Source: Planctomycetota bacterium
GTDB lineage: Bacteria > Planctomycetota > Phycisphaerae > WQYP01
DNA: 64,000 bases
Assembly (NCBI GenBank): GCA_021790385.1
Contig: JAJYDW010000007.1
Coordinates: 10,483-74,482, forward strand
Direction: 5' to 3'
Part shown: piece after piece, positions 30,154 through 46,874 of the stretch
Position numbering within the stretch: the first letter of the stretch is position 1
Layout of the letters: each line of letters starts with the position of its first letter
The notes under the pieces: generated by a model
Seen by the model: only the letters and a program-made list of their open reading frames with translations
Databases searched by the model: none
Told to the model about the DNA's origin: nothing
Translations under genes and position numbers: made by a program

Positions 30154-31179
30154 ATGCGAAAGGTCAAAAAAACAACCCTCCATTCCGATGCGAACCTGCT
30201 GGAGGATGCCCGGCAAATCATAAAATCCGAAGCGCAAAGTCTTCTGGCCATCGCGGGACGCATGGATCAAGCCCTTGTGCGGGCTATACATCTTATTCAT
30301 GACCATATTGGGCCGGATTCCGCCGGGGTGCTGGTAGTCAGCGGTGTCGGCAAATCAGGGCTGGTGGGCCAGCGCATCAGTGCCAGCTTTGCCAGCACCG
30401 GCACGCCCTCGCATTTTCTTCATCCGGTGGAAGCGTTGCATGGAGATCTGGGGCGGGTACGCCGGCAGGATTTGGCCTTGCTGCTGTCTTATGGTGGAGA
30501 AACGGATGAATTAATCCGTCTGATGGACCACTTAAAACGCATGCGTGTACCCACCATCGCCATCACCAGTCAGGCGTCAAGCTCTCTGGGAAGGCTGGGG
30601 GATATCTGCATCGGGCTGGGTTCGCTGGAAGAAGCCTGCCCCCTGCGACTGGCCCCTACCACGAGTGTAACGTGCATCAGTGCCGTTGCCGATGCCCTGG
30701 TGCTGGGAGTGATGAGCCTGCGGCATTTTTCGGCGGAAGATTTTGCGGCTTTTCATCCAGCCGGTTCCCTGGGACGAAAATTGCTTCGGGTGCGCGATGC
30801 AATGAGTTTTGTGGTGGGTAAAAATATATCGGTTGCATCCATGAAATCGACGGTGCGGCAAGTGCTGGCCCAGGATAAGACCTTGGGCCGAAGGGCGGGA
30901 GCGGTTATTCTGGTGGACCCAAAGGGCGTATTGGCTGGAATATTCACCGATGGAGACCTTCGCCGCAAGCTCGGACAATATGCCGACCTGCTGGAAATGC
31001 CGATGGCCAAAGTAATGACGGTGAATCCAAAGGCTATCGGACATCAGGCGCTGGCCAGTGAAGCTCTGGCCCTGTTAAACCGCCACCGGATCGACGAATT
31101 ACCGGTAGTGGATGAGTGCAACCACCCGGTCGGGCTTATCGACGTGCAGGATTTGGTGACCCTGCGAGTGTTAGAATAA
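30154..31179 (+). CDS. kdsD: Arabinose-5-phosphate isomerase (KpsF/KdsD; SIS domain plus tandem CBS domains)
   Basis: SIS motif VVSGVGKSGLVGQRISASFASTGTPSHFLHP. C-terminal CBS pair. Start at MRKVKKT. Confidence 0.85.
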   Translation: MRKVKKTTLHSDANLLEDARQIIKSEAQSLLAIAGRMDQALVRAIHLIHDHIGPDSAGVLVVSGVGKSGLVGQRISASFASTGTPSHFLHPVEALHGDLGRVRRQDLALLLSYGGETDELIRLMDHLKRMRVPTIAITSQASSSLGRLGDICIGLGSLEEACPLRLAPTTSVTCISAVADALVLGVMSLRHFSAEDFAAFHPAGSLGRKLLRVRDAMSFVVGKNISVASMKSTVRQVLAQDKTLGRRAGAVILVDPKGVLAGIFTDGDLRRKLGQYADLLEMPMAKVMTVNPKAIGHQALASEALALLNRHRIDELPVVDECNHPVGLIDVQDLVTLRVLE

Positions 31180-31255
31180 ATCATGGTCGCCGCGTGATGG
31201 CCACCAGCGCAATAAGCAGCGACAAAAAAGGTCGATTGGAAGTACGGAGTTGCGG

Positions 31256-31756
31256 ATGGATATTCAGTTGCTGATTCTGGATGTGGATGGGGTGCTCACC
31301 GATGGTGGAATCATCCGCGATGACAGCGGCCAGCAGATTAAACGCTTTCATGTTCGTGATGGCGCAGGGATTGTGATGTGGCGACGCTTTAACCGGCAGG
31401 TAGCCATTATCACCGGAAAGGAAAGCCAGGTGGTGCAGCACCGTGCCGAAGAACTGGGAATTACCCAAGTCTACCAGAACGTTACCAATAAGCTGGAAGT
31501 GTATGGAGATTTACTCCAGCAATTGGGCTTGCAAGACGCGCAGGTGGCTTATGTGGGCGATGACCTGCCTGACCTGCCGGTGATGCGGCGCTGCGGCTGC
31601 CCGATTGCCGTAGCTGACGCCGTGCCGGAAGTGCGGGCTGCGGCCAAATATGTGACTGCTGCTCCCGGAGGATTCGGGGCGGTGCGGGATGCCATCGAAT
31701 GGCTCTGCAAGCAGATGAACATCTGGGACCAGGTGATAGCCCGGTACACGGGCTGA
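31256..31756 (+). CDS. kdsC: 3-deoxy-D-manno-octulosonate 8-phosphate phosphatase (KdsC, HAD superfamily)
   Basis: IQLLILDVDGVLTDGGI (HAD motif I); GDDLPDLPVM (motif III). 167 aa. Confidence 0.85.
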   Translation: MDIQLLILDVDGVLTDGGIIRDDSGQQIKRFHVRDGAGIVMWRRFNRQVAIITGKESQVVQHRAEELGITQVYQNVTNKLEVYGDLLQQLGLQDAQVAYVGDDLPDLPVMRRCGCPIAVADAVPEVRAAAKYVTAAPGGFGAVRDAIEWLCKQMNIWDQVIARYTG

Positions 31757-31812
31757 ACAATGGGTTGTGCGTACCTGGTGCCAGGGTCCCAATTCAGACA
31801 GCAAGTTAAATT

Positions 31813-34800
31813 ATGAAAAAGAAAATTCTTCTATACATGGCAACTCTGGTCGTGGTGGCGGTCATTTTCGTCTGGGTGACGGGCCTCTTTTCCGGGGCCG
31901 GAGTGTGGCGCATTCATCATCAGCCGGTACATCCGGTTCCGGTCTTTACCACCAAAGGCATGGCCCACCTGGTGATGGAGGTGCGCAGTTCCAGGGGCGT
32001 GCTGGAATATGTGCTGCGCGCACGGCAAGCACTTCCCAAAGGCAACGGGCGATATCTGCTTACAGAACCAAGCATGCAATTTTTCAGCGCCAATAATCAA
32101 TCGACCGTCATTGCCAGCGACATGGGCGATGTGTATGTGGATCAGGTGGGCGGAGCGATGTCCAGCCACGTTTACCCGCGCAAGGGCAAACTTTTTGGCC
32201 ATCCGACCATCACCATGGGACCGGTGAAATCCTTTATTCACGGCGTGCGCAGGCGACAACCGGGACAAATGCAAATCCGGTTTTCCCGCCCGCTTTCGTT
32301 TAATTATCAACAGGGCATTATCAAGAGTTCAGGAGCCGTCCATCTGCGCAGTGATCAGGCGGACTTCGACGGTCTGGGGCTGACCGCCCAGATTGACCTG
32401 CCTCATAAAAAATTGACCTACCTGCGAATTGACAAAGGCATTCGGATGGTGCTGCGTCATGTCTACAATGCCGGCGGTTTTGGGCAAAATTCTGTATCCA
32501 GTCCACCGGCCGTCATCAGCCAGCCGCCGACAACGCCCACCTCCGCAGTGACTTCATCTGGAAAGGTGAACACGCCGTTGGCGGTAGTGGCCAACGCGCC
32601 GGTGGTGTATCGGCTGGATTTTATCGACCATGTGAAGGCGTTGATCGGCCCACAGGAGATTCAGGCTCCACGTTTTGTCGTTTATTTTTCCGGAAGTGCT
32701 GCCGCGCCTCCAAAACCAACACCCGCTGCAGTCCCCTTGACTGGCCCATCCGTGGCCACACCACCTGCCACCGGTACTGCGGTTCACTCTCATGTGGTCC
32801 ACACCCATCGCGATGCGGATCTGTTTCTCACCTGGACCGGCCCCATGATCATGCGTCCTGAGTTGCCTCACGGTATGCACCTGCTGGGACCGAAAGATAT
32901 TTTATTTGAAGCCCGTGGTCAGGTTGGCGAGCCGGTTCGGCTGACCGATGACAAAACCCTTTCCGCGTTGGCCCAAGAAGTGACCTATCAAACCCAGCCG
33001 CAAATTCTTGAACTTATGGCTGGTGTCGGCACTACCGTGGTGCTGAACAGCAGCCAATTCGGAACGGTTCATTGTCCTGAGGTAACTTTCAATCGTTTAA
33101 CCAACCGAGTTCTGCTGACCGGGCCGGGAACAGCCAAGCTTAGCTCGCCGCACGGCACAACATCCGGTGGCTGGCAAGCGACATGGCAAAAATTCGTCCA
33201 CCTCCGCCTCGCTCAGATGCCGGAAACCAGTCAATCAGGCCGCACCACGCTTGAGGTACGCCGTGTAACTCTACGTGGACAAGCACGGGTTAAACATGTC
33301 GGGCTGAGCATACATGGCGACGAACTGGCGGCCTGGCTCACTGCCGCTGGTCCGGCACACCACCCCCAGGCGTTGCAACGGCTTCTGGCCAAGGGACACG
33401 TGCAAGTGCTTTCACAAACGTCCGCGGCCAGGGGTGCTCCCGCCAACAGCAGCCGCATGACCTGCGATCAATTGTTGATGCAATCCACCCGCCAGGCCGG
33501 CCACCAAACACCTGTACCGCACAGCCTGCTGGCCACCGGCCATGTCCATCTGAAACTTATCCAGCCTGCTGCGAATACCGGCTCTACACCGGCAGTTTAC
33601 ACAATTATTACGCCGCACTTAGCGGCTATACTGGCTCCAACCCAGGTTCGGCCGGACCGTTCCGGTCATCTGCTATCTTCTTCCGGCCGCTTCACCGTTA
33701 CCCAGTTTAGCGCTACGGCTGGTGTGCATCTGGGTATCAGCAACATGGGCCGCCCCATCGCGGCGACGGCCACAGCAATGTCCGGCAATCGCCGCACAGG
33801 AATCATGGAACTCACCGGCGGAACCGGGGCCAATTCCTCCGCCTGGGCTGCGATTACGCAACAGGGCAATTTTATTACCGGCCCGGATCTGATTCTACAT
33901 CAAAAGGCGCAAGCAATTTTCGCACGCGGCCCCGGCAAGTTTGTCATCCTGCGTAAAAAATCCCCCGACACGGCGGCGAAACCGGGCGTACAAATCCTCT
34001 GGCAAAAATCCATGAAGTATCACGGTACCACCCACAAAGCCTTATTTGTTGGCCACGTGCTGGCCCAATTGCTCTCTCGGCCTGACCAGCAAAGTCGTTT
34101 AGCCTGCCATCAATTGGCCATTCTACTGGCAAAACCCGCAGCGGCACGGTCTGATGCCACCGGCCAATTGCATCTGGTGGATTTGCAGGCCCAAGGCGCA
34201 GCCGGCCGCCGACTCAATGCCATGAACGCCAGTTTTAACCCGCGAGGTCTGCTGCAAACCCGATTGTATATTCAGGGTAATTCTCTGCATTATAATGCCC
34301 TGCTTCGACGTTTGACTGTTGCCGGCCCCGGGCAGATGTCGCTGGAGGACTATCGGGGAGAATCAGCGGCCAGGCGTCGGGCTGCGGCCAAAAAACCGAT
34401 AGGTAATCCGCTGGGTCAGCCCCGTGGCCAAAGCGCTTTCGCCTGGTCGCAGGGGCTGCGCTACCACGGAAATACCGGCGTTTTGTCTCTGCGGGGCCGA
34501 GTTCGCCTGGTATATAAACCACTCCACCCGTTGCAGGCCTCGATGATAGGTGCGGTGGACAACTCCACCCAGGTCCAGCACCCTGCTGGTGCTGGGGCAG
34601 GCGAACGAGCCAGGTTGATCCTGCTGGACTGTCGACGATTGATGGCGCAGCTCACGCGGCCAGGACAGGCGAAAACCAGCGCGATGGAACTGGGCATGGG
34701 CGGTCCCATGAAACTTGATTTCGTGCAGGCACAGGCTGCGGCGTTGGAGCTTCTGGGAATTCGGATGACTGCTGATGTCCTGAAATTTAATACCGCTAAA

Positions 34801-34959
34801 GAGCAGGCTACTGCAATGGGCTTAAATGGCCACGAAGCCGTGGTCAGCAGTAGAAATGGCCAGGCGCACGGTCAGGCCCGCAAAATAATATGGAACCTGG
34901 CTAAAGGCCGGACAGGCTTGATATTTATTCAACCGCGTGGAACGATTTCCACACACTAA
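31813..34959 (+). CDS. Large N-terminally membrane-anchored envelope protein (1048 aa). The N-terminal region is possibly an OstA/LptC-LptA-like fold; the remainder is unknown.
   Basis: Single N-terminal TM (LLYMATLVVVAVIFVWVTGLF). The segment after it shows the beta-jellyroll-like pattern ..YLLTEPSMQFF..NQSTVIASDMGDVYVD.. seen in LptC/LptA. The position immediately after kdsC mirrors kdsD-kdsC-lptC-lptA synteny. The functional assignment is an inference (about 0.3). Confidence 0.6.
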   Translation: MKKKILLYMATLVVVAVIFVWVTGLFSGAGVWRIHHQPVHPVPVFTTKGMAHLVMEVRSSRGVLEYVLRARQALPKGNGRYLLTEPSMQFFSANNQSTVIASDMGDVYVDQVGGAMSSHVYPRKGKLFGHPTITMGPVKSFIHGVRRRQPGQMQIRFSRPLSFNYQQGIIKSSGAVHLRSDQADFDGLGLTAQIDLPHKKLTYLRIDKGIRMVLRHVYNAGGFGQNSVSSPPAVISQPPTTPTSAVTSSGKVNTPLAVVANAPVVYRLDFIDHVKALIGPQEIQAPRFVVYFSGSAAAPPKPTPAAVPLTGPSVATPPATGTAVHSHVVHTHRDADLFLTWTGPMIMRPELPHGMHLLGPKDILFEARGQVGEPVRLTDDKTLSALAQEVTYQTQPQILELMAGVGTTVVLNSSQFGTVHCPEVTFNRLTNRVLLTGPGTAKLSSPHGTTSGGWQATWQKFVHLRLAQMPETSQSGRTTLEVRRVTLRGQARVKHVGLSIHGDELAAWLTAAGPAHHPQALQRLLAKGHVQVLSQTSAARGAPANSSRMTCDQLLMQSTRQAGHQTPVPHSLLATGHVHLKLIQPAANTGSTPAVYTIITPHLAAILAPTQVRPDRSGHLLSSSGRFTVTQFSATAGVHLGISNMGRPIAATATAMSGNRRTGIMELTGGTGANSSAWAAITQQGNFITGPDLILHQKAQAIFARGPGKFVILRKKSPDTAAKPGVQILWQKSMKYHGTTHKALFVGHVLAQLLSRPDQQSRLACHQLAILLAKPAAARSDATGQLHLVDLQAQGAAGRRLNAMNASFNPRGLLQTRLYIQGNSLHYNALLRRLTVAGPGQMSLEDYRGESAARRRAAAKKPIGNPLGQPRGQSAFAWSQGLRYHGNTGVLSLRGRVRLVYKPLHPLQASMIGAVDNSTQVQHPAGAGAGERARLILLDCRRLMAQLTRPGQAKTSAMELGMGGPMKLDFVQAQAAALELLGIRMTADVLKFNTAKEQATAMGLNGHEAVVSSRNGQAHGQARKIIWNLAKGRTGLIFIQPRGTISTH

Positions 34960-34965
34960 GCGGAA

Positions 34966-37900
34966 ATGGCGGACAAAAAGTCGGATTTACTTATGGCAAA
35001 ACCAGGATTGGTCTGGGTAACCATTGTTGCTTCAGGTTTGGCTTGCGGCGGCGGCGCGTCTGGCGTGCACGCGGCAACCACCACTGCTACCGCTATGGTC
35101 AAGGGCAGAGTTCAGCCCGCGACTGAAGCTCAACTGCGTTCTTCCGTGTCCTCCCCCCAAGACATTCCAGCCTCGGTGCAAACCATTGACCAATATATTC
35201 AGACCGTGGCCGGTTTTGGTCCCAACCGTTCCGCCGGCAGTGCCGGTGCGCAGCAGACTGGCAGGTTCTATATCAACAAGCTGGCCTCCGGCAGCGGTCG
35301 GCCGGTGTGGCGTCAACCATTTTCGATGGTGGTTCCACATACACAATATTGCCGGGCGGTGGATCCGCAACATCCAGCCATGCCCATAAAGCTATTTTTA
35401 ATGCGCCCTTGCGGTGGTCAAATTGCGGCATTGCCAAGTATGCAGAGTCATACTGCGCCGGTGGTATATGTGGGTCGCGGCCGCCTGCCGGATCTGCGAG
35501 GTCTTCACATTGCCCATGCCTGGGTGGCCATGAATATATCAGGCTCGCGCAACTGGCTGACCATCGCCGGGCTGGGTGCCCGTGGAATAATCTTCCTGGG
35601 TTCCGCGCAAGACAGCTTCACCTCTTTTGCTCCCACCGCCACGACCGTCCCGGTAACTATTCCGCGGTTTTATACCCAAAATCCCACGTTGGCAGCGGCC
35701 ATTCGCACCGGTAAAATCCGCAGCCTTAACATTCAATGGCGTGCTGAGTGGGTGCGCCGCATCGGCAATAATCTGCTGTGCCTGATTCCGCCGACCAATT
35801 CCGCCAAGAATGCGGCATCCGCTCCGTCAAAATCGCTGATTATTCTCACTGCCCGCTACGATGCTTCCAGCTATGTGTTGGGCCGCAGTCCCGGCGCGCA
35901 GCAGGACATGGGAGCCGCCGTTCTCGCGGCACTGGCTCCGCAAATCGCCCAGGCTCAACTGGGCCATCCCGTGCTTATTGCGCTGCTGGCTGACAATACC
36001 TGGCAGTTTACCGGCGAGCAGCAACTCCTTCGCATGCTCACGACTACGCCTGTCACACTGACATCGCGACTGGCTCGGCGCAGAATCGCCTACCACAAAG
36101 CCAGTCGTATGTTGACCCAATTGCGGGATATCGCCGCTACCAGAAATGTAAGCGATATACAACTTGGCTCGTCTCTGGCCCAGACCATCGGCAATCAGAT
36201 CCAGGCGGATGTCTCAAAATTACAGTCTGCCCTGGATATTCAGTTGCTCAAGCCCATCGTAGATCGCCACCACCAGGTGAAACTGCTGGAAAAACGCAAA
36301 CTTGATCTACTTTTCGCCCACAATGCCGTTCATACGCACCATCATCTGGCCGCGTCGCAGCAGGTTATTTTGCGTGCTGTTGAGCAACTGATACCACAGT
36401 GGCAGATGGAAGCCCGGCGGTCCCAAGAACGTGTGCACAAAGTCCAGGCGTGGCGCGCCATCCGCCGTAAATTAGGTCCGGACAAGCTGAAAATTCTGGT
36501 GCAGTTGAACCTGCATTTGACCAGCCATGGCCGGGAGTTCGGTTTTATTACCCATTCCTCCTGGATGACCAACGATTTCAGCAACGAGATGTCCCAGTTT
36601 GACAGCGCCATCACCCGTAATTATTTTGGCCAAGCCCGTCGCCATGCCAAAAAGATGGGGCTTCCTTTTCGTTGCGCCTTTAATCCGCTACCTGCGGAAT
36701 CAGTTGATTCCGTCCATAATTACTTTCCCATTCCCATGGGATTCTGCACCGATTATGCCTTGTGGCGGGGTCTGCCTGGCGGTACCTTTGCCACGCTTTG
36801 CGACGACAGCGGCCTGATTGATACGCCCAACGATACCACCAGCCGAATCGATTGGCAGTCCATAGCCCGGCAGGTGGCGGCCTTGAAGCTGCTGCTGCTG
36901 GGCAGTCAGCGTTACCATTCGCTCGGAGCGCTCACTGATCCTGATTTTTCCGGTCGTGTAACCCCGCATGATCAAACCAGCAATCAAACCTTTACCGTAC
37001 TCCGACGCAGCTTCGGCCAGGCGGTGGCATCACTGGGTGCCCCGAATTATCTGGCCGGGGCGGTTTTTATTAACGGCGGTGGTCCCTTGCCACCGGTGTT
37101 GGAGGGTACCCGCCGCAGCAGTTGGCAATTCACTCATTTCAATGGCTCAGTCCACCTTCATCATCTGCCCTACGGCTGGTTCCAGTACGAATTGCAGGTA
37201 TTTAAATTTGCCTCCGACGGCATGCCGAAAAGAGTACTCGCGGGCAACCTGGCGGCACAAGGTTATTCCGATGGATTATTCATACCCGACAGTTCCACCA
37301 CTCTCCAGTGTCTGGTCTTTAAAAGCCGTCCCATCAATCTTTACGGACTTTTTGACCCACGGTACCTCGATTATATCGATCAACTGCAGATTCTTGACGC
37401 CCGTAAGGGTGGCGCTCCCAAGTACGATCAAAGTTTCACTGCCGGGATGGCCGGAATCGCCTACGTGCAGCCGGGTGTACCCTGGCAACTGCTGGCCTCA
37501 CGTGGAGCCGTGGCCAACCGCATGATTCTCATCAACGCCTCGCGGGCGCACCCGCTGGGGACCGGCTTTCTCCACAATGGCGCGACCTATCTGGGCCCGC
37601 TCGCCTGGAGAACCGCCACTGATATGAACGCCATTGACACGCATCGCCGTGCGGTGCTGCAAAAGTTCGGCATCACCAGCAACGTCATCAATACTTTTTT
37701 TGAAGCCGCGAAAACGCATCTTCAAGCCGGCCAAAAAGCCCGCAATACCCAACATTACAACCGCTGGCTGGGTCAGGCCGCCGCCGCCTGGAGTCTGCAA
37801 ATCCAGGCTTACCACGCCCTGATCAGCGATTCCAATGGCATTGTTTATGGTGCTATTTTTCTGCTGCTGGGCCTGATTCCCTTCAGCTACTTTCTTGAAC

Positions 37901-39942
37901 GCCTGCTTATCGGTTCCCCCAATGTATACCGCCAGATTGGCGGATTTGCCTTTATTTTCGCCATCATGACCGCGGTGCTGGCCTCCTTCCATCCAGCCTT
38001 TCGCATCACCAAGGCCCCGCTGATGATCCTGTTAGCCTTTGTCATATTGCTTCTCTCCGCAGTGGTTATTCACATTCTGTTCCAAAGATTTGAAAATGAA
38101 CTCGGCAACATGCGCGGTGCCAGATCCAGTTCCCACAAAGATACCCTCCGCGGCAGTGCCGTCTTTGGGGCTGCCCTGCGGCTGGGCCTGTCCAATATGC
38201 GCCGCCGTGGCACCCGCACCACTCTTACCCTGATTACGCTGGTCCTGCTCACCTTCACCCTGCTTTGTTTTACCAGCTTGCGGCACAACCTGACCCTGGT
38301 GCCCAATACCGAACCCAATGCACCCAAGCATCCTGCCGTCGGCATTCTGTTGCGCCAGAGAGCCTGGCAGCCCATACCTGAAATTGGGCTACAACTAACC
38401 CGGGAAATCGTCGGCCGCAGAGGTATCGTTGCCCCTGTTTTCTGGTACGCCTCGACCAACCCGCAAAGCACCTGGCATATTGCCATCCGGCCTGCCAGAT
38501 TCTCTCCCATCCACACTTCCAGTCCCAACGTCAGTGGCCTGGTAGGCATTTCACCGCAGGCGGCCGCCTTCTTTAAATCGCCGGCCGCCAGTATTGCGTC
38601 ACAGTTGTCGGGATGGAAGAAGCTTCTGGCGGGACAACCTGTATGTTTTCTGCCCGCGAATTTCCACGGCCACCCTTTCCACCGCAATCAAAAGGTGCGG
38701 ATTCTGGGCCGCAGCCTGACGATTGCCGGGTTCTTTCACACGCGAAGCTTTATGGTAAGGCAAATCACCGGTGAACCCATCTTCCCCGTAGATGCCGCCG
38801 CCAGTGCCCAGGGCAGTCAAACGCCGGCCAATACGAGTCCCAGCCAGATTGCCGCCATGCGTGAGCCTAGCCTTACTTTTTTACGCCCCGCGGAGGTTGC
38901 CATACTACCCGCCGACATTGTCCGCAGTTTCGGAGGCCATTTCACCAGTGCCATGCTCTGGCCGCACGGTGCCACACCCCAAACCATCTTTCGCGAGGCT
39001 CGCCACCTGGCCCGGCGCTGCGCCTTCTCGGTCATCGCTTCCAATGGCCAGCGGGTGCTTTCGTATAACGCCACCGCCAGCGCCGGGGTCAACGATCTTT
39101 CCTCGGTATTGGTACCCCTGGCTATTGCGGCGGTGATTGTGCTCAACACCATGCTTGGCGCTGTATCCGAACGTACCCGCGAAATTCATGTGTACACATC
39201 GCTGGGGTTGGCCCCCAGTCACGTGGGAATGTTGTTTCTGGCCGAAGCCGCCGCACTCGGAACGCTGGGCGTGGTTTTCGGGTATATCTGCGGCCAGGCC
39301 GCAGCCACCCTGCTGACCTACACTCATCTAATTTCCGGAGTGCACCTCAATTATTCCTCCATGTCGGCCATCGGTACCATGGGCCTGGTCCTGGCGCTGG
39401 TCATGGCATCCACGATCTGGCCGGCGCGCATGGCATCGCGCGTGGCGGCACCGAGTCTGCAACGTCACTGGAAACTCCCCGAACCCGTCGGAGACATTTT
39501 AAAAGTAGATCTCCCCTTTACCGTCAATGCCGTCGCCGCCCACGGTATCTGCAAGTTTATTGAAGAATTCTTCAGTGACGTTTCTCAAAGCGGCGTGGGT
39601 CGCTTTACCGCCGAAAAAATCTCCGCTTTTACCCACCAAAGCATTCACGGAATTTCCGCCCAGGTGTGGCTGGCCCCCTACGATCTGGGGGTCATTCAAG
39701 ATTTCTGGCTGGCCATCCATCCGACGCCAGAACCCAACGTCTTTGAAGTTAAACTGACCCTGCGCCGCCAAGCCGGCAGTCCCGCCACCTGGCTCCGGCT
39801 TAACCGGCCATTTATGGTCGAGGTGCGAAAACAGTTTTTATTGTGGCGTTCCGTATCGCCGGAAATGGTGCATGAATACGTGACAGGCTCGGAACAGATG
39901 TTCGCGCACGCCGAGGAAACTTCGCCACCGGTTGCAGCATAA
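34966..39942 (+). CDS. Giant (1658 aa) fusion protein: signal peptide, then a PA domain plus a degenerate M28 peptidase-like ectodomain (about 35140-36000), then a linker, extra TM helices, and an FtsX/MacB-type 4-TM permease domain with a periplasmic loop (about 38100-39450), then a cytoplasmic tail of about 160 aa
   Basis: PA-like VVYVGRGRLPDLRGLHIAHAWVAMNISGSRNWLTIAGLGARGIIFL. M28-like NNLLCLIP...SLIILTARYDASS...GRSPGAQQDMGAAVLAALA...HPVLIALLADN, with the metal-binding D/E residues replaced (QQD, ADN). FtsX hallmark LGAVSERTREIHVYTSLGLAP and the TM1 motif RRRGTRTTLTLITLVLL. No Walker A anywhere in the protein. Confidence 0.75.
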   Translation: MADKKSDLLMAKPGLVWVTIVASGLACGGGASGVHAATTTATAMVKGRVQPATEAQLRSSVSSPQDIPASVQTIDQYIQTVAGFGPNRSAGSAGAQQTGRFYINKLASGSGRPVWRQPFSMVVPHTQYCRAVDPQHPAMPIKLFLMRPCGGQIAALPSMQSHTAPVVYVGRGRLPDLRGLHIAHAWVAMNISGSRNWLTIAGLGARGIIFLGSAQDSFTSFAPTATTVPVTIPRFYTQNPTLAAAIRTGKIRSLNIQWRAEWVRRIGNNLLCLIPPTNSAKNAASAPSKSLIILTARYDASSYVLGRSPGAQQDMGAAVLAALAPQIAQAQLGHPVLIALLADNTWQFTGEQQLLRMLTTTPVTLTSRLARRRIAYHKASRMLTQLRDIAATRNVSDIQLGSSLAQTIGNQIQADVSKLQSALDIQLLKPIVDRHHQVKLLEKRKLDLLFAHNAVHTHHHLAASQQVILRAVEQLIPQWQMEARRSQERVHKVQAWRAIRRKLGPDKLKILVQLNLHLTSHGREFGFITHSSWMTNDFSNEMSQFDSAITRNYFGQARRHAKKMGLPFRCAFNPLPAESVDSVHNYFPIPMGFCTDYALWRGLPGGTFATLCDDSGLIDTPNDTTSRIDWQSIARQVAALKLLLLGSQRYHSLGALTDPDFSGRVTPHDQTSNQTFTVLRRSFGQAVASLGAPNYLAGAVFINGGGPLPPVLEGTRRSSWQFTHFNGSVHLHHLPYGWFQYELQVFKFASDGMPKRVLAGNLAAQGYSDGLFIPDSSTTLQCLVFKSRPINLYGLFDPRYLDYIDQLQILDARKGGAPKYDQSFTAGMAGIAYVQPGVPWQLLASRGAVANRMILINASRAHPLGTGFLHNGATYLGPLAWRTATDMNAIDTHRRAVLQKFGITSNVINTFFEAAKTHLQAGQKARNTQHYNRWLGQAAAAWSLQIQAYHALISDSNGIVYGAIFLLLGLIPFSYFLERLLIGSPNVYRQIGGFAFIFAIMTAVLASFHPAFRITKAPLMILLAFVILLLSAVVIHILFQRFENELGNMRGARSSSHKDTLRGSAVFGAALRLGLSNMRRRGTRTTLTLITLVLLTFTLLCFTSLRHNLTLVPNTEPNAPKHPAVGILLRQRAWQPIPEIGLQLTREIVGRRGIVAPVFWYASTNPQSTWHIAIRPARFSPIHTSSPNVSGLVGISPQAAAFFKSPAASIASQLSGWKKLLAGQPVCFLPANFHGHPFHRNQKVRILGRSLTIAGFFHTRSFMVRQITGEPIFPVDAAASAQGSQTPANTSPSQIAAMREPSLTFLRPAEVAILPADIVRSFGGHFTSAMLWPHGATPQTIFREARHLARRCAFSVIASNGQRVLSYNATASAGVNDLSSVLVPLAIAAVIVLNTMLGAVSERTREIHVYTSLGLAPSHVGMLFLAEAAALGTLGVVFGYICGQAAATLLTYTHLISGVHLNYSSMSAIGTMGLVLALVMASTIWPARMASRVAAPSLQRHWKLPEPVGDILKVDLPFTVNAVAAHGICKFIEEFFSDVSQSGVGRFTAEKISAFTHQSIHGISAQVWLAPYDLGVIQDFWLAIHPTPEPNVFEVKLTLRRQAGSPATWLRLNRPFMVEVRKQFLLWRSVSPEMVHEYVTGSEQMFAHAEETSPPVAA

Positions 39943-39952
39943 GGCTTTTTTG

Positions 39953-41947
39953 ATGACGGAAGACAAGGAACTTGCCCAATACCGGTCGCTGATGGCTACG
40001 CCGTCGGTTTTTGCCGACGGCTTTAACCTTAAATCCGTCATTGGCTGCTTGTTCATCGGCCTGGTGATGATGCCCGGGTCAATGTATCTTGCACTGATGA
40101 CCGGCGGAGGCCTTGGCCCGGCCGCCCAATGGGTTACCACCATCCTCTTTATTGAACTGGCCCGCCGGTCGTTTACCAGCCTCAAAAGCCCGGAAATTTT
40201 TATCCTCTATTACATGGCCGGCGTGGCGGTGCTTTCTCCGTTCAGCAACCTGCTTTTCACGCAATATTATATTCAATCCAGTGCCGCGCAGGCCTTCGGC
40301 ATTTCCCATCTGATACCATCGTGGGTCGCACCAGGACCAAAAATTCTCGCCCAACGCACATTTTTTACCGGTGCCTGGGTTATTCCCATGGTTCTCATGG
40401 GTGTGACTTATCTGTTTTCCCGCCTGAACAATTTTGGTCTGGGGTACGTACTATACCGCGTTACCAGCGACGTTGAAAAATTGCCTTTTCCCATGGCACC
40501 CATCGGAGCGATGGGCATTACCGCCCTGGCCGAAAGCTCCAGCGGCAACGAAACCTGGCGATGGCGGGTTTTTTCCATCGGCGGCATGATCGGCCTGGTG
40601 TATGGGGCACTTTGGCTGGGTGTCCCGGCCATCACCGGCACCTTTCTCCAGAAGCCCATCCAACCCATTCCGTTGGTCTTCGCCGATTTCACGCAATACA
40701 CCCAGAGCTTTCTCCCCGGCGTGCCCATGGCAGTGAGTTTTGACATCACCAATGTGATGGTCGGATTTGTTTTGCCATTTTCCGCGGTGCTCGGTACGAC
40801 CATTGCCACCATTGCGACCTGGCTGGCCACACCGCTGCTGGTCCATTGGCATCAAATTCCCGACTGGAAGCCAGGTATGGATGCGGTGAACACCTCCTGG
40901 GTGGGGTATATCGACGTTTACATGAGCGTTGGCATCGGCTTGGCGGTGGCCATCGCCCTGATCGGTTTTTTTCATATTTTTTCGACCATACGCCGCCGCG
41001 GGAAAAGCAGCGAGATGTTGTCTCCTGCCAGCGACAAGGATACCTCCAGCCCATCTGCATGGCAGCGGCTGATACATCCTCCGGCGGGCCGCGGCGATTT
41101 TTCCCTCTGGATCGGCATAGGCATTTACCTTGCCAGCACGATCACTTCTACGGTGCTATGTAAGATGCTGGTGCCCACCTTTCCCCTGTGGCTGCTGCTG
41201 GCGTACGGTTTTGGTTATACGCCCGTGATGAGCTACGTAGCCTCGCGTATGGAAGGCATTGCCGGCCAGTGGGTGGATATTCCGATGGTTCAGCAAGCCA
41301 CTTTTGTGCTGGCGCATAAATTCGGCTACAACGGCGTGGGAATCTGGTTTGCCCCCATACCCCTCAATAATTTCGCGGGCCAGGTGGTTAGCTTCCGCAC
41401 CCAGGAACTCACCGGAACCAAAATATCCAGTGTGGTCAAGGCTGAACTGGTCATGTTCCCCGTGGTCATTATCAGCAGCATTATCTTTTCCCAGTACCTG
41501 TGGCGCATCGCGCCTATTCCCTCGCCCGCGTACCCCTTCGCCAATCAAATCTGGACTCTGACCGCCAAACAGATGGCCTTGTATCAATCGGCCACGCTCC
41601 CCGGTGGAAATTCCATGTTCATGGATGCCATCAAGTGGCCTTATATTTTCGGGGCGGTCATCGGCGGCATTGGGCTTTATGCCGTCTTGGCGAGATTCGG
41701 GGCGCCGGTTATGCTCTGTTATGGACTGGTACGCGGCCTGGGTGCGGGGTTGGCTCCATGGGTGTTTCCGCAATTGCTTGGAGCTCTCCTGGGTAGATAC
41801 TATTTTCAAAAGAAAATTGGCGTGACGAAATGGCGGCAGTATGCGCCGGTACTGGCGGCCGGATTTGCCTGTGGAATCGGACTCATCAGTATGTTGTCGT
41901 TTGGATTTGATTTGGTCAGCAAGGCCGTGTTTCAGTTGCCGTATTAG
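39953..41947 (+). CDS. Polytopic integral membrane protein (about 665 aa, at least 12 predicted TM segments), uncharacterised; paralog of the next gene
   Basis: Start overlaps the stop of the giant gene (translationally coupled). Hydrophobic throughout. C-terminal LLGRYYFQKKIG...APVLAAGFACGIGLISM resembles LLKAVILRWGGVELYKKARPFFFGLIIGEAIANVFWM of the next ORF. Confidence 0.6.
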   Translation: MTEDKELAQYRSLMATPSVFADGFNLKSVIGCLFIGLVMMPGSMYLALMTGGGLGPAAQWVTTILFIELARRSFTSLKSPEIFILYYMAGVAVLSPFSNLLFTQYYIQSSAAQAFGISHLIPSWVAPGPKILAQRTFFTGAWVIPMVLMGVTYLFSRLNNFGLGYVLYRVTSDVEKLPFPMAPIGAMGITALAESSSGNETWRWRVFSIGGMIGLVYGALWLGVPAITGTFLQKPIQPIPLVFADFTQYTQSFLPGVPMAVSFDITNVMVGFVLPFSAVLGTTIATIATWLATPLLVHWHQIPDWKPGMDAVNTSWVGYIDVYMSVGIGLAVAIALIGFFHIFSTIRRRGKSSEMLSPASDKDTSSPSAWQRLIHPPAGRGDFSLWIGIGIYLASTITSTVLCKMLVPTFPLWLLLAYGFGYTPVMSYVASRMEGIAGQWVDIPMVQQATFVLAHKFGYNGVGIWFAPIPLNNFAGQVVSFRTQELTGTKISSVVKAELVMFPVVIISSIIFSQYLWRIAPIPSPAYPFANQIWTLTAKQMALYQSATLPGGNSMFMDAIKWPYIFGAVIGGIGLYAVLARFGAPVMLCYGLVRGLGAGLAPWVFPQLLGALLGRYYFQKKIGVTKWRQYAPVLAAGFACGIGLISMLSFGFDLVSKAVFQLPY

Positions 41948-41965
41948 CCGGAAGCCCGCACCGCC

Positions 41966-44005
41966 GTGACCATTCGATGGACCGTTTTTGGATGTAAGAT
42001 CCGCATGAGTAAGATGCCTCAATCGCCGAATCTCGGCACCGATAAAATTACGTACAGTGTTACATTTCGCAGCGCCCTGCTGGGCATCGGACTGACCCTG
42101 CTGGTGGCCATTTTTACCCCTTTCAATGACTACGTAATGCAAAACACCTATTTCGTGGGTAACAATCTACCCATGTCGGTTATTTTCTGTATTTTGCTAT
42201 TGTCACTCGTAGTGAACCCGCTGCTGGGTTCCCGCCGATTCCGCCGGGGTGAAATGATCGTGGCTTTCAGCATGATGCTCATCGCCTGCGCTCTGCCCAG
42301 TTCCGGACTATATCGCTACCTATATTCCACACTGGCTGATTCCGTCTACCAGGCAGGCCAAAATTCTTCCTTCATCCCATTTGTCCATGCCCTGCCATCC
42401 TGGATGCTGGCCTCCAAAAATCCGCATAGCTGGGTGTTACGGGACTTTTACCTTGGCTTTAGCAGTCATTCCCGCCATTCTTATTGGGATGTACTCCAAG
42501 CCTGGGCTTTGCCAGTAGTAACCTGGGCCTGTTTCCTGCTGGGCATGTTTGGTGCCATCATTTTTTTCTGCCTGATCATGCGCAAACAATGGGTTCAGCG
42601 CGAACGTCTGCCCTACCCTCTGGCCACGATTCCCCTGGAATTATTAGCGGATCCGGAACCGGGCCGACGCATCAATGCACTGTGGCGTTCGCCGCTGCTT
42701 TGGATTGCCGCCGGCCTTGTTTTTCTCATTGATATTTATAACGGATCGCTTCTCTTCCCGATTTTTCATAATCTGCCCCCCATTCCCACCACTTATAATC
42801 TGTCCAAAGATTTTTCCCAGTTTCCATGGAATGCCATTCTTTGGGCGATTCAACGCAATCGCATTTATTTTTCCGTAGTCGGTGTAACCTTTTTCATCCC
42901 GCTGGAAATTTCATTTTCAATATGGTTTTTCTTTCTGGCCTACAATTTCGGTTATGTTTTTCTCGTGGACAGCGGTTCCAATGCCAATCTCTCCACCATG
43001 ACCATCTGGCAAACGCCGGGCATGTATGCCGCTTATTTCATCATCACCTTGTGGATTGTCCGCCGGCATATTCGCGAAGTGTTCATATCCACCATTCGCT
43101 TCCTACCGCGACAACCGGATGAGTTTTTACCCTATTGGATCAGCGTCTGGGGATTTTTGCTTTGCGTGGCCATAGCCACAGCATTTCTCGCCTTTGCCGG
43201 ATTAAACTGGTGGTGCGGTCTGCTGGTGGTGGCTTTACTACTGTTTTACTGCATGATGCTTACCCGCGTTATTGCCGAAGCCGGCCTTTTAATGGTGGAC
43301 TTCTCCAGCGGGCCATTTCACGCCCTGACACTGCTGTTTTCCTCCAATCCGTCCGCTCTTTCCATCCGCCAGTGGATGGTGGCCCGCTTGAGCATCTCCA
43401 ACCTTTGGACTGATCAGCGGGAAAACCTCATGCCCTTCGCTTCCGATGTGCTGCGCATGGGTTCTGACGTTCAACCCTACCGCAAAGTCCGTTACGTAAC
43501 CCTGCTGTTTGGAGCCTTGGTCCTGTGTTTTGTCGTGGCCGGGACAACAAACCTGCTGCTGAGTTATAAGTATGGTGCCAGCACTTTCAATGGCTATAGT
43601 GCCGTCGGTTTTCCATACAACACCGTGGAAAGTGCCATCCACGCAGCACAGCCCAACACCGCTTCCACCTCGCCGATGACTCATCTGCTGTACGTTATCG
43701 AAGGCGCAGTGGCCATGACCGCGGTTGCCGGATCGCGGCTCCTTTTCGCCGACAGCCCCTTCCACCCTATCGCGCTGCTGTTCCTCAACAGCTACGCCAT
43801 GGACGTGTTCTGGTTTTCCGTTTTCATCGGCTGGTTGCTTAAAGCGGTGATCTTGCGCTGGGGTGGCGTAGAGCTTTATAAAAAGGCCCGCCCCTTTTTC
43901 TTCGGCCTGATCATTGGCGAAGCCATCGCTAACGTCTTCTGGATGTTCATCGGATTTTTCGTGGGCTGGCCGTCTGGAATTCCGTTCTGGCTTCTCCCCG
44001 GATAA
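41966..44005 (+). CDS. Polytopic integral membrane protein (about 670 aa), uncharacterised; paralog of the preceding gene
   Basis: ORF-track start is GTG at 41966; an ATG alternative is at about 42005. Many TM helices. Starts 19 nt after the preceding stop. Confidence 0.6.
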   Translation: MTIRWTVFGCKIRMSKMPQSPNLGTDKITYSVTFRSALLGIGLTLLVAIFTPFNDYVMQNTYFVGNNLPMSVIFCILLLSLVVNPLLGSRRFRRGEMIVAFSMMLIACALPSSGLYRYLYSTLADSVYQAGQNSSFIPFVHALPSWMLASKNPHSWVLRDFYLGFSSHSRHSYWDVLQAWALPVVTWACFLLGMFGAIIFFCLIMRKQWVQRERLPYPLATIPLELLADPEPGRRINALWRSPLLWIAAGLVFLIDIYNGSLLFPIFHNLPPIPTTYNLSKDFSQFPWNAILWAIQRNRIYFSVVGVTFFIPLEISFSIWFFFLAYNFGYVFLVDSGSNANLSTMTIWQTPGMYAAYFIITLWIVRRHIREVFISTIRFLPRQPDEFLPYWISVWGFLLCVAIATAFLAFAGLNWWCGLLVVALLLFYCMMLTRVIAEAGLLMVDFSSGPFHALTLLFSSNPSALSIRQWMVARLSISNLWTDQRENLMPFASDVLRMGSDVQPYRKVRYVTLLFGALVLCFVVAGTTNLLLSYKYGASTFNGYSAVGFPYNTVESAIHAAQPNTASTSPMTHLLYVIEGAVAMTAVAGSRLLFADSPFHPIALLFLNSYAMDVFWFSVFIGWLLKAVILRWGGVELYKKARPFFFGLIIGEAIANVFWMFIGFFVGWPSGIPFWLLPG

Positions 44006-44995: not shown

Positions 44996-45044
44996 GGCAA
45001 TATTCCAATTTTTGAGGCCAGTAGCGGCCCCAATCCACTTGAAT

Positions 45045-46797: not shown

Positions 46798-46874
46798 GGT
46801 CGCCGCAGTAACTGGCAGCGGGGCACCCCTGCCGCTGCACCTGACGATTTCTCCGGCAGCAGAAAGGAGTAGTC

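Follow-up and report, generated by a model that had tools for sequence, protein, structure and literature searches.

A kdsD-kdsC-Lpt-like gene set beside part of a widespread type VII ABC system in a Phycisphaerae gene cluster

Six co-directional genes of a Phycisphaerae genome bring together two separable modules, kdsD-kdsC-LptCA and GIANT/OPT, the second of which belongs to a widespread type VII ABC system of the MacB/LolCDE class for which we found no published study. At about even confidence, we read the locus as two envelope modules transcribed together in a single Phycisphaerae clade, the second being locally incomplete, with its ATPase encoded in trans.

Results

Gene layout of the region

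The six open reading frames that a sequence-only reading had placed in the window (the whole 64,000-nucleotide stretch analysed) were all confirmed on the plus strand, at the coordinates first given:

30066..30093, plus strand: candidate operon promoter (TTGACA-16-AAGAAT), the best sigma-70-like match, directly upstream of kdsD
30154..31179, plus strand: kdsD/kpsF-type arabinose-5-phosphate isomerase with SIS and CBS domains (TIGR00393, Pfam SIS and CBS)
31250..31756, plus strand: kdsC, KDO-8-phosphate phosphatase of the HAD-IIIA, YrbI family (TIGR01670)
31813..34959, plus strand: LptCA, 1048 aa, transmembrane (TM) anchor and Lpt-type jellyroll chain (Pfam, AF2/Foldseek, internal repeats)
34966..39942, plus strand: GIANT, 1658 aa (Pfam FtsX, 22-sequence profile, AF2 model)
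39932..41947, plus strand: OPTa, OPT-superfamily polytopic membrane protein, 671 aa (Pfam OPT in close homologues)
41966..44005, plus strand: OPTb, DUF6785 and DUF6784 polytopic membrane protein, 679 aa (Pfam)

The gaps between the six genes measured 6-76 nt, and not 0-57 nt as first reported, with 6 nt separating LptCA from GIANT. The stop-start overlap described for GIANT and OPTa requires TTG 39932 as the OPTa start and is lost with the ATG at 39953, which is called publicly at an identical locus, leaves a 10-nt gap after GIANT and is the likely start (664 aa). Likely or public starts also lie further downstream for OPTb (ATG 42005, 666 aa) and GIANT (34993). The promoter-like site matches at 10 of 12 positions, and we regard it as suggestive because such sites were no commoner in the region than expected from shuffled sequences. 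Terminator-like sites were absent from the intergenic spaces of the six genes, in a scan that did not exceed shuffle expectation either. An ABC ATPase gene was not found anywhere within the 64-kb window: tblastn with two ATPases of the module gave a best E of 1.0, and the sole ATPase-type Pfam match among the larger ORFs between 9.8 and 63.9 kb was a RecN-like SMC protein. The earlier statement that the operon and its flanks encode no nucleotide-binding protein therefore stands for ABC ATPases.

kdsD, kdsC and the LptC/LptA-like protein

The kdsD product matched the KpsF/GutQ model TIGR00393 at 4.1e-80 (269 bits, cutoff 203.7). Its start is ATG 30154, the equivalent of which also begins the orthologue in L007, with an alternative GTG at 30109. 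The kdsC product matched TIGR01670 at 4.6e-51 (172.8 bits, cutoff 106.95) and is 72% identical to the kdsC of L174, which precedes an LptCA-GIANT pair there.

Residues 12-108 of LptCA matched Pfam LptC (25.1 bits, cutoff 21), and residues 994-1036 matched LptD_N/OstA (22.7 bits, cutoff 20.4). Its AF2 model, with a mean pLDDT of 60.6 (the LptCA and GIANT models are both of modest confidence, pLDDT 60-65), consists of a helix at residues 2-24 followed by almost exclusively beta structure, and retrieved LptD (8e-7), LptC (4b54, TMt 0.62) and LptA (2r19, TMt 0.59-0.62, rmsd 3.5) with Foldseek; no PDB match was found at the sequence level. Residues 676-850 and 868-1045 are internal repeats (hhalign 95%, E 2.6e-8), and the linkers between jellyroll repeats are rich in Pro, Ala and Thr. 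LptCA thus resembles an LptC-like head to which three or more OstA/LptA-like repeats have been fused. As in the LptC-LptA bridge of the LptB2FGC-A-DE machinery, the TM anchor matches Pfam LptC from model position 1, the jellyrolls match LptC, LptA and LptD-N, and the gene lies directly behind kdsD-kdsC; LptCA differs, however, in being one 1048-aa chain with several jellyroll repeats. In contrast to the kdsD-kdsC-lptC-lptA-lptB operon, lptB followed LptCA in no relative, in a set of nine retrieved homologues.

GIANT carries a pseudo-peptidase ectodomain and a complete permease unit

From N- to C-terminus, GIANT comprises a signal/anchor, a PA/M28-like ectodomain, an unassigned domain, a three-helix TM bundle, a MacB-type permease unit and a conserved cytoplasmic C-terminal domain, of which the following were delimited:

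35077..36915, plus strand: PA and M28-aminopeptidase-like periplasmic ectodomain, residues ~38-650, interrupted at ~350-510 by a mainly helical insertion (profile matches)
37828..38100, plus strand: extra three-helix membrane bundle, residues ~955-1045, with an invariant HPAF motif (invariant columns, AF2 helices)
38152..39456, plus strand: complete type VII ABC (MacB/LolC/FtsX) permease unit (Pfam, profile, Foldseek)
39463..39885, plus strand: cytoplasmic C-terminal alpha/beta domain of ~145 aa, WLAPYDLGVxQ ... RKQFLLWR (invariant columns, pLDDT 70-86)

The PA/M28-like part, proposed earlier and undetected by Pfam with the single sequence, was recovered with a 22-sequence profile that matched the aminopeptidases 2EK8 (2.5e-19) and YwaD (4e-18). 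The transferrin receptor (2e-5) and nicastrin (1e-4), non-catalytic M28/PA ectodomains, were also matched; like GIANT they have lost zinc ligands and are membrane-tethered, whereas GIANT is bacterial and fused to an ABC-type permease. Where the aligned proteins have SHHDS, GANDDASG and YHTPNDT, GIANT has ARYDAS (His to Arg297), PGAQQDMG and IDTPNDT (His to Asp619), respectively. Since these metal-ligand substitutions, which recur across the family, affect the M28-like domain, its sequence identifies it as a pseudo-peptidase.

The FtsX-type permease assignment proved genuine. Pfam FtsX covers residues 1382-1492 (1.3e-12), and the unit runs from an amphipathic helix through TM1, a ~270-aa periplasmic alpha/beta domain and TM2 to a coupling helix (SERTREIHVYTSLGLAP), TM3 and TM4. 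The profile of this unit matched MacB (5LIL, 9.6e-15) over both halves, that is TM1, periplasmic domain and TM2-4, and also YtrF, LolC and LolF, while Foldseek with the AF2 model retrieved LolE/LolC of LolCDE (5.8e-12), MacB (6.4e-12), HrtB, BceB and FtsX. All 22 sequences share E1402, R1403, E1406, I1407, G1414 and P1417. Few stretches of GIANT are as well conserved across all lineages as the NBD-coupling helix, which, like an RRR motif before TM1, does not vary whether or not an ATPase gene lies next to GIANT. Only one FtsX unit is recognisable: the extra bundle, which in the predicted model returns the chain from periplasm to cytoplasm, could not be related to the FtsX domain (hhalign probability 0.1%). 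The C-terminal domain weakly resembles START/Bet v1 folds (Foldseek 6ka2, 3put and 4jhg, E 3e-3 to 1e-2), and no jellyroll-like docking domain was detectable in residues 650-950.

OPTa and OPTb

OPTa is the best-conserved component, with 50-63% identity between phyla. Its homologues (3601 matches; 953 representatives at 50% clustering) include proteins that NCBI calls "peptide transporter" or "OPT/YSL family transporter". Three of 13 close homologues matched Pfam OPT at 1e-16, which links them to the OPT family (PF03169, TC 2.A.67), whereas the OPTa of the window stayed below detection and its subfamily differs in nearly always adjoining GIANT. No PDB relative of OPTa was found. OPTb matched DUF6785 (1.9e-99) and DUF6784 (1.5e-25) and is a full-length member of this family. 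Paralogy of the two proteins, as first suggested, could not be demonstrated (BLASTP E=0.012 over 106 aa, hhalign E=0.077), and from their sequences they would be remote superfamily relatives at most. We found no characterised members of either subfamily.

The family-wide cluster and its ATPase

A cluster with GIANT and OPT-like genes at its core is conserved across more than 595 species genomes, the majority from Desulfobacterota and some from Planctomycetota. The order sFtsX-ABC-GIANT-OPTb(DUF6785)-OPTa occurs in some 40 Desulfobacterota species genomes, five of them from cultured strains, and the five genes occur in permuted order at L003, L006, L087 and L088; most Desulfobacterota loci have OPTb beside GIANT and OPTa. 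The full cluster also encodes a 230-aa FtsX-only partner (sFtsX), often with a PqqD-like protein and two uncharacterised proteins. A LolD/FtsE-type ATPase gene (LolD/MacB/DevA/FtsE class, best NCBIfam match LolD), accompanied by sFtsX, was adjacent in 28 of 46 well-flanked loci, defined by at least 3 kb upstream and at least 5 kb downstream; the remaining 18, from several lineages, lacked both the ATPase and the small FtsX. The initial description of an ATPase-less system is thus correct for the locus in the window and incorrect for the family. Of 32 metagenome loci anchored on GIANT, 29 had an OPT-like gene next to it, and in some loci without the ATPase (L113, L162, L165 and L110) GIANT and OPTa form an isolated pair surrounded by unrelated housekeeping genes.

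Neither an ATPase gene nor a small FtsX gene was found in this genome and other Phycisphaerae within the ±10 kb read around the anchors. The module is scattered in Phycisphaerae (no OPTb beside OPTa in L010-L012 and L174, an acc29x homologue kept in L005 only, a toxin-antitoxin-like pair between GIANT and OPTa), so that dispersal of the ATPase is plausible. The ATPase gene adjoins the cluster in most other bacteria, and the NBD-coupling helix of GIANT does not vary; GIANT in this genome is therefore most probably served by an ATPase encoded in trans. Literature searches on DUF6785, DUF6784 and M28+FtsX+MacB returned nothing, and GIANT, OPTa, OPTb and the accessory proteins all lack an NCBIfam model, which bears out the view that the GIANT/OPT-like genes form an undescribed envelope system.

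The two gene sets are separable

The kdsD-kdsC-LptCA set is a conserved unit of its own, present in further Phycisphaerae that lack GIANT beside it. LptCA homologues occur with kdsD and/or kdsC and without GIANT or lptB at L170 and L172, and more than 100 GIANT/OPT loci, including all those outside Phycisphaerae, have no Lpt-like gene. The two sets are therefore separable modules. At L171 and L172, where GIANT does not follow LptCA, lptB does not follow it either, and lpt genes outside Proteobacteria are reported to be unclustered (PMC8871954); the idea that GIANT has replaced LptB in its slot was thus not borne out. Co-localisation of the unusual genes with kdsC/kdsD, on which the sequence-only reading depended, does recur, as kdsD-kdsC-LptCA-GIANT-OPT in L091 and kdsC-LptCA-GIANT-OPT in L174, both divergent lineages. 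Four Phycisphaerae lineages keep the order kdsC-LptCA-GIANT-OPTa despite divergence of LptCA to 24-32% identity; this retention and the short LptCA-GIANT gap argue for more than accidental juxtaposition. With such synteny in four divergent lineages, functional coupling is therefore conceivable.

Discussion

LolCDE is one of the nearest known counterparts. It provides the best structural match of the GIANT permease, shares its TM1, periplasmic domain and TM2-4 topology with coupling helix, and resembles canonical GIANT loci in having two different FtsX-type permease genes and one LolD-like ATPase gene. GIANT differs in its ~1600 aa, its PA/M28-like ectodomain, its three extra TM helices and its cytoplasmic C-terminal domain; the second permease is nearly devoid of a periplasmic domain, OPT-superfamily proteins are linked in almost all loci examined, and the loci lack LolA/LolB genes, with every NCBIfam Lol score far under cutoff. 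MacAB-TolC and MacB-family peptide or antibiotic exporters share the whole permease unit and the ATPase class, but in the GIANT system the NBD is unfused, the ectodomain architecture is unrelated, and no GIANT locus contains a MacA-type adaptor or TolC gene.

Could GIANT/OPT be coupled physically and functionally to the LptC/A-like bridge in this clade, drawing a lipid or (KDO-)glycolipid out of the inner membrane in the manner of LolCDE and passing it to the jellyroll chain, beside or instead of LptB2FG? Lineages with LptCA-GIANT synteny are scattered over the clade tree, with kdsD-kdsC-LptCA-GIANT or kdsC-LptCA-GIANT in the window/L007, L011/L091 and L174 and LptCA-GIANT in L005; the two genes are tightly spaced and even overlap in L174. 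The structural match to a lipoprotein extractor, the START-like, lipid-binding resemblance of the C-terminal domain and the glycosyltransferase and DUF2334 genes that adjoin the cluster in Desulfobacterota fit as well, and Lpt in Planctomycetes is reported to be "largely reduced" (PMC8871954). We nevertheless consider such an exporter rather unlikely: GIANT/OPT has no Lpt-like neighbour in hundreds of genomes, LptCA with kdsD/kdsC lacks GIANT in L170-L172, three Phycisphaerae-type lineages (L001, L004/L010, L090) have GIANT without upstream LptCA, no docking jellyroll was detectable in residues 650-950, and the accessory genes hint at peptides.

The 18 loci without ATPase and small FtsX, the solitary GIANT-OPTa pairs and a GIANT-OPT adjacency much tighter than that of GIANT and ABC would also suit a self-sufficient, pmf-driven transporter-receptor pair, with the FtsX unit as a structural scaffold and ABC/sFtsX as an optional add-on; OPT-family transporters are secondary carriers. 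This seems unlikely, as the NBD-coupling helix is conserved in every lineage and we know of no FtsX/MacB-fold protein that works without an NBD. FtsX permeases distant from their ATPase gene moreover have a precedent in TIGR03434, the ADOP "duplicated orphan permease" family, whose members typically lack an adjacent ATPase gene; the FtsX part of GIANT matches it weakly (21 bits against a cutoff of 622, and one recognisable FtsX unit instead of two). Very unlikely, in our judgement, is a regulated-hydrolase system of the FtsEX-EnvC kind, in which the dead M28-like domain would be an ATP-controlled activator or adaptor of a separate periplasmic enzyme of envelope or cell-wall remodelling, and the OPT-like proteins would recycle released peptides. 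FtsEX-EnvC/PcsB and YbbAP-TesA likewise combine a MacB-fold permease with a hydrolase-fold periplasmic module, catalytically dead in EnvC (PMC7668044, PMC12646458); the dead peptidase-fold ectodomain with its long helical insertion parallels EnvC and PcsB (PMC7668044), type VII systems are repeatedly paired with hydrolases (PMC12646458), and OPT-type proteins are annotated as peptide transporters. The GIANT pseudo-hydrolase, in contrast, is of M28/PA fold and fused to the permease, with no sign of a downstream enzyme; no conserved hydrolase gene was found in the cluster, and nothing in acc200 or acc29x was recognisable as the signature of an enzyme.

We therefore return to two separable modules. 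The first (kdsD, kdsC, LptCA) would represent the classical kdsD-kdsC-lptC-lptA arrangement in its local form, providing KDO for LPS and an inner-membrane-anchored, single-chain LptC-LptA(n) beta-jellyroll bridge. The second (GIANT, OPTa, OPTb) would be an incomplete local copy of the widespread MacB/LolCDE/FtsEX-class system, its small permease and ATPase most likely being encoded elsewhere in the genome. The ATPase would dock onto the invariant coupling helix, and the small FtsX would probably form the second half of a LolC/LolE-like heterodimer with GIANT. Type VII ABC systems are established mechanotransmitters with periplasmic partners that are often hydrolase-like (PMC5985334; PMC12646458). 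ATP binding and hydrolysis could likewise be transmitted across the membrane so as to move periplasmic domains, among them the ~900-aa catalytically dead PA/M28-like ectodomain, which may bind a ligand for, or gate, the tightly linked OPT-superfamily protein(s), the putative membrane conduit. Transport direction and ligand class we infer, the latter solely from domain-family themes: because aminopeptidase and OPT folds occur family-wide together with a PqqD-type peptide chaperone, these themes point to a peptide or a peptide-bearing envelope ligand, and not LPS, as what the system may handle.

Genetic organization of the operon

The six co-directional ORFs proposed from the nucleotide sequence are present between 30.1 and 44.0 kb of the window.

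Table. ORFs of the operon (window coordinates).
30154/30109-31179: kdsD; TIGR00393, 269.2 bits (cutoff 203.7)
31250-31756: kdsC; TIGR01670, 172.8 bits (cutoff 106.95)
31813-34959: ORF3 (LptCA), 1048 aa; weak, above-threshold Pfam matches to LptC (N terminus) and LptD_N/OstA (C terminus)
34966-39942: GIANT, 1658 aa; Pfam FtsX, 1.3e-12
39932/39953-41947: OPTa, OPT-like polytopic protein; no Pfam match of its own
41966/42005-44005: OPTb, polytopic protein; full-length DUF6785 (1.9e-99) and DUF6784 (1.5e-25)

Both kdsD and kdsC passed the curated NCBIfam subfamily cutoffs and did not reach the equivalog-level KdsD and KdsC models. The genes are separated by 6-76 nt, not by 0-57 nt as first estimated, and the overlapping stop and start then described needs a TTG start; public gene calls of the identical locus use another start. 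Loci 95% identical to the window occur in Planctomycetota MAGs, and NCBI labels a clustered OPTa copy '[Phycisphaerae bacterium]'; both, like the PEP-CTERM and DUF1559 proteins described below, indicate a Planctomycetota origin.

The 5′ neighbor of the operon encodes a sodium:solute symporter and the 3′ neighbor is a convergent gene of the UDG family, whose product (44030-45100, minus strand, facing OPTb) carries an N-terminal extension of about 170 aa without family match. Three PEP-CTERM and two N-methyl/DUF1559 (pseudopilin-like) proteins, typical features of the PVC group, are encoded on the flanks (21291-23229, 26517-27662, 45865-47864). Further out lie two carbohydrate clusters:
13408-20393, minus strand: starch/alpha-glucan utilization cluster with a GH31 alpha-glucosidase-like protein, an alpha-amylase with a CBM48-like domain and a LacI-family regulator
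48104-62889, plus strand: run of glycoside-hydrolase-like genes, probably a cluster for degradation of fucosylated glycans, with two GH123_N-like proteins of >1200 aa, GH31/melibiase-like and GH95 proteins, an alpha-L-fucosidase and a GDSL esterase

Gene orientation changes from minus to plus at about 20.4-21.3 kb, and cumulative GC skew reaches its maximum near 31 kb. To either side of the switch, C is enriched on the coding strand; skew tracks the direction of transcription, not the usual leading-strand G excess.

GIANT combines a type VII ABC permease unit with an M28-like ectodomain

The architecture of GIANT was analyzed with a 22-sequence profile against PDB sequences. Its FtsX domain (PF02687, TM2-TM4) scored 48.3 bits in Pfam (cutoff 25.5), PDB matches for this part were YtrF, MacB and LolC, and the C-terminal half aligned with MacB (5LIL, 9.6e-15) in two stretches, one with TM1 and the periplasmic domain and one with TM2-4 (5LIL residues 271-459 and 482-654). 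The topology comprises an N-in TM1, a large periplasmic domain, TM2-4 and, joining TM2 to TM3 on the cytoplasmic side, a coupling helix. In an AF2 model spanning residues 930-1658 (mean pLDDT 65), three extra TM helices and an amphipathic helix precede TM1; after an alpha/beta periplasmic domain come TM2, a short coupling helix, TM3 and TM4, followed by a cytoplasmic alpha/beta domain of about 145 aa. The top Foldseek matches of this model were LolE/LolC (5.8e-12), MacB (6.4e-12), HrtB, BceB and FtsX. Since profile, AF2 and Foldseek results agree, the FtsX similarity noticed in the sequence-only reading is genuine and not spurious, and GIANT contains one complete type VII ABC permease unit. 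The 22-sequence family alignment shows no variation in the ER..EI..Y..GLAP motif, and the coupling helix (SERTREIHVYTSLGLAP) together with a basic motif preceding TM1 is invariant in 22/22 sequences and in 7/7 of the Phycisphaerae type.

A tandem FtsX arrangement as in BceB/YbbP, in which the N-terminal anchor, the ectodomain and the first 3-TM bundle would form a degenerate second unit, was rejected for want of sequence support: topology alone is still compatible with it, but hhalign of GIANT residues 945-1050 against the FtsX domain gave a probability of 0.1%. The conserved cytoplasmic C-terminal domain (residues ~1500-1640; 39463-39885) showed weak Foldseek matches (E 3e-3 to 1e-2, probability 0.8-0.95) to the START/Bet v1 helix-grip fold of hydrophobic-ligand-binding proteins.

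At the other end of the protein, residues ~38-325 matched PA-domain M28 aminopeptidases (2EK8, 2.5e-19; Bacillus subtilis YwaD, 6HC6, 4e-18) and, more weakly, the non-catalytic ectodomains of transferrin receptor and nicastrin. Pfam M28 is recorded for the distant homologues P0007-P0009, and a conserved 'DTPNDT' near residue 620 is the counterpart of the C-terminal M28 motif. GIANT has not kept the zinc ligands of the co-catalytic site (His, Asp, Glu, Asp, His): Arg297 stands in place of the 'HxD' His (Phe/Tyr in relatives), Gln in place of the bridging Asp of 'GAxD' (variable, E/Q/N/G, among relatives) and Asp619 in place of the 'YHTP' His. Given this loss, the ectodomain was treated as a putative pseudo-peptidase and not filed as an active peptidase.

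OPTa and OPTb

OPTa is conserved far more strongly than GIANT, with 50-63% identity across phyla (50% between Desulfobacterota and Planctomycetota), 3601 matches and 953 representatives at 50% clustering. Pfam OPT (PF03169) gave no match in the window protein at E<=0.1 and matched 3 of 13 homologues (50-71% identity) with values up to 1e-16; NCBI names some homologues OPT/YSL transporter or peptide transporter. OPTa and OPTb, both of about 670 aa, had been presented as paralogues, but recent paralogy is not established by their similarity (BLASTP E=0.012, hhalign E=0.077). PDB sequence searches with OPTa, OPTb and the accessory proteins acc200 and acc29x found no related solved structure.

The GIANT/OPT module in other genomes

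A word-indexed search yielded 10 GIANT homologues. At distant loci GIANT is adjoined by an FtsX-only protein of 227-351 aa (sFtsX) and an ABC ATPase of about 245 aa, and a DUF6785 protein and an OPT-like protein are encoded there too. A scan of GTDB species genomes anchored on OPTa gave >595 loci, 80 of which were kept and mapped by tblastn, and a metagenome scan anchored on GIANT gave further gene orders, e.g., GIANT, OPTa, acc29x, PqqD, sFtsX, ABC. An OPT-like gene adjoins GIANT in 29 of 32 metagenome loci with >=2.5 kb on both sides.

The canonical operon of Desulfobacterota, found in about 40 genomes, five of them from cultured strains, consists of small FtsX, ABC ATPase, GIANT, OPTb (DUF6785) and OPTa, often followed by acc200 (secreted, ~205 aa), acc29x (~295 aa) and a PqqD-like protein (Pfam 2e-9; weak NCBIfam matches to ScmD and lasso-peptide PqqD chaperones). 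The ATPase belongs to the LolD/MacB/DevA/FtsE class. Genes resembling GT28 or DUF2334 are often found upstream of the cluster. In some loci acc200, which has no family or structural match, is tandemly duplicated (L018:5814-7226, L026:4725-6044).

Next to the Desulfobacterota cluster, often on the opposite strand, about 28 loci, and also locus L003, carry a STAS anti-sigma antagonist, an RsbW-like HATPase_c_2 kinase, a cNMP-binding protein and an ABC exporter of ~840 aa, neighbors that suggest regulation by partner switching or cyclic nucleotides. Examples are:
L067:14025-17861, minus strand
L027:14153-14485, minus strand
L021:14660-15109, minus strand
L016:14223-14747, minus strand

The ATPase of the module

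No ABC ATPase was detected in the 64-kb window, either by Pfam on the larger ORFs between 9.8 and 63.9 kb or by tblastn with two module ATPases, in agreement with the earlier observation that operon and flanks hold no nucleotide-binding partner. A search of the window for the small FtsX, ATPase, acc200, acc29x and PqqD-like genes matched GIANT's own FtsX domain only. Among 46 loci whose GIANT/OPT block is flanked by >=3 kb upstream and >=5 kb downstream, an ATPase is present in 28 and absent from 18, the latter including the Phycisphaerae-type loci and lineages with a GIANT-OPTa pair alone among housekeeping genes. The description of the system as ATPase-less thus does not extend to the family, which has a dedicated ATPase; its absence from the window is a matter of local gene order.

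We favor an ATPase encoded elsewhere in the genome for the GIANT of the window, because the coupling helix and the basic motif before TM1 stay invariant, because the module is visibly fragmented in the Phycisphaerae clade, and because FtsX permeases apart from their ATPase are known, as in the ADOP family. As to fragmentation, seen in neighborhoods of ±10 kb around the anchors, OPTb is not beside OPTa in loci L010-L012 and L174, acc29x is kept only in L005, and two genes are inserted between GIANT and OPTa in L010-L012 and L091:
L010:9079-9932, minus strand
L011:7967-8778, minus strand
L012:1652-2173, minus strand
L091, between 14224 and 16268, minus strand

The inserted genes encode products of ~174 aa ('RRIEKL..FDCGREELNRYL') and ~96-114 aa ('KLDLRLTPKAKKAL..SVSEFVLESAL'), which we take to resemble a GNAT-toxin/DUF1778-antitoxin pair; L174 has a PhdYeFM/PIN pair just after OPTa instead. 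Weak ABC matches downstream in L011/L091 (60-65 bits) come from a 505-aa protein with tandem NBDs, encoded on the opposite strand, and were dismissed as unrelated.

LptCA and the kdsD-kdsC unit

The AF2 model of ORF3 (mean pLDDT 60.6; residues 436-676 unreliable) consists of an N-terminal helix (2-24) followed by nearly all beta structure, and the Pfam LptC alignment begins at position 1 of the Pfam model. Foldseek matched it with probability 1.00 to LptD (8e-7), LptC (4b54/3my2, TMt ~0.6) and LptA (2r19, TMt 0.59-0.62, rmsd 3.5 Å), with TMt of 0.5-0.62 for single modules. Internal repeats were detected by hhalign between residues 676-850 and 868-1045 (95%, E 2.6e-8) and between 262-445 and 868-1045 (73%). 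PDB sequence searches with the single sequence and with a 4-sequence profile gave no match. From the model, the Foldseek matches and the repeats, ORF3 is best described as a fusion of an LptC-like anchor with several LptA/OstA-like jellyrolls in a single chain.

Nine homologues were found, with 24-32% identity between lineages. Those of Phycisphaerae are proteins of ~1040-1180 aa encoded straight after kdsC or kdsD; relatives are located at:
L005:1852-4983
L091:5885-9262
L174:1607-4780
L170:10001-13531
L172:8961-12236

kdsD-kdsC or kdsC lies upstream in the window, L007, L091, L170 (kdsC-like) and L174, and in L172 the homologue follows kdsD and two small ORFs. In L171 and L172 it is succeeded by an M42 peptidase gene on the other strand, with neither GIANT nor lptB. 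As such GIANT-free homologues follow kdsD/kdsC, kdsD-kdsC-LptCA forms a separate unit. The argument that GIANT occupies the slot of LptB fails, because lptB adjoins the ORF3 homologue in no relative, in line with published work that describes lpt genes as unclustered outside Proteobacteria and Lpt as 'largely reduced' in Planctomycetes (PMC8871954).

Association of LptCA with GIANT

Juxtaposition of LptCA and GIANT extends beyond this genome, as three related gene arrangements show, two of them with kdsC or kdsD-kdsC upstream.

Table. Loci with LptCA next to GIANT (identities to the window).
L091/L011: kdsD-kdsC-LptCA-GIANT-...-OPTa; GIANT 42%
L174: kdsC-LptCA-GIANT-OPTa; GIANT 44%, kdsC 72%, LptCA 24%
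L005: LptCA-GIANT-OPTa-OPTb-acc29x; GIANT 44%

In a neighbor-joining tree of the GIANT C-terminal region, lineages with this synteny are scattered across the Phycisphaerae-type clade, and LptCA is missing upstream of GIANT in L001, L004/L010 and L090. The simplest reading is an ancestral operon with the LptCA-GIANT juxtaposition and its later loss from some branches. That the two proteins are truly coupled in function is improbable in our judgment, and we keep the idea mainly because the order is retained despite the 24-32% identity of LptCA; hhalign of GIANT residues 650-950 against ORF3 modules gave a probability of 0.2%, and no jellyroll docking domain was seen. Equally doubtful is the broader proposal that GIANT and its OPT-like partners were recruited to the LPS pathway in the Phycisphaerae clade, with the LptC-LptA(n) chain as a bridge, as a second route that does not use LptB2FG. 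Of the envelope module put forward in the sequence-only reading, a real, undescribed system with conserved KDO/Lpt synteny remains, neither intrinsically ATPase-less nor a replacement of LptB.

Proposed mechanism and ligand

Established type VII ABC behavior served as the model for the mechanism that we consider best supported (PMC5985334; PMC12646458). A dimer of the LolD/FtsE-type ATPase, encoded in trans, would dock on the coupling helices of GIANT and probably also on the small FtsX partner, so that the two permeases would form a LolC/LolE-like heterodimer. ATP-driven closure would be relayed to the periplasm, where the MacB-like domain and the dead PA/M28 ectodomain of about 900 aa would shift, and the tightly linked OPT-superfamily protein(s) would provide the membrane path for the ligand.

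Both the direction of transport and the ligand are inferred. A coherent 'peptide' theme runs through the aminopeptidase fold, the OPT fold and the PqqD-type peptide chaperone. A lipid is suggested instead, less strongly, by LolCDE as best structural match, the START/Bet v1-like match of the C-terminal domain, the glycosyltransferase neighbors and the Lpt synteny.

Significance

To our knowledge, functions are established for only a handful of type VII ABC systems: MacAB-TolC, LolCDE, FtsEX, BceAB, HrtBA and, recently, YbbAP-TesA. Each newly found system has uncovered a distinct envelope process. The present module has a known permease fold and a known ATPase class, but its architecture and the pairing with OPT-like proteins have no known precedent. 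Searches of the available literature found nothing on DUF6785, DUF6784 or the combination M28+FtsX+MacB, those for FtsX with 'OPT family' returned an unrelated transporter census only, and none of GIANT, OPTa, OPTb, acc200 and acc29x is named by an NCBIfam model. The module is widespread (>595 species-level genomes) and unites a MacB permease with a dead M28/PA ectodomain, with OPT-like membrane proteins and with a PqqD-like chaperone, folds not seen together before. It occurs in cultured, sequenced strains (e.g., Desulfatibacillum alkenivorans DSM 16219, Halodesulfovibrio aestuarii DSM 17919 and Desulfopila sp. IMCC35008) and is therefore open to experimental test.

For Planctomycetes, a single-chain LptC/LptA-like protein may explain the 'reduced' Lpt system and suit a wide periplasm, and LptCA offers a way into the study of how LPS crosses this unusual compartment. 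If the second route exists, it would extract a KDO-containing or other envelope glycolipid and send it across the enlarged periplasm of planctomycetes. In more general terms, GIANT/OPT/ABC would then represent a functional class new among type VII ABC machines, in which a mechanotransmitter is coupled to a secondary-transporter fold.
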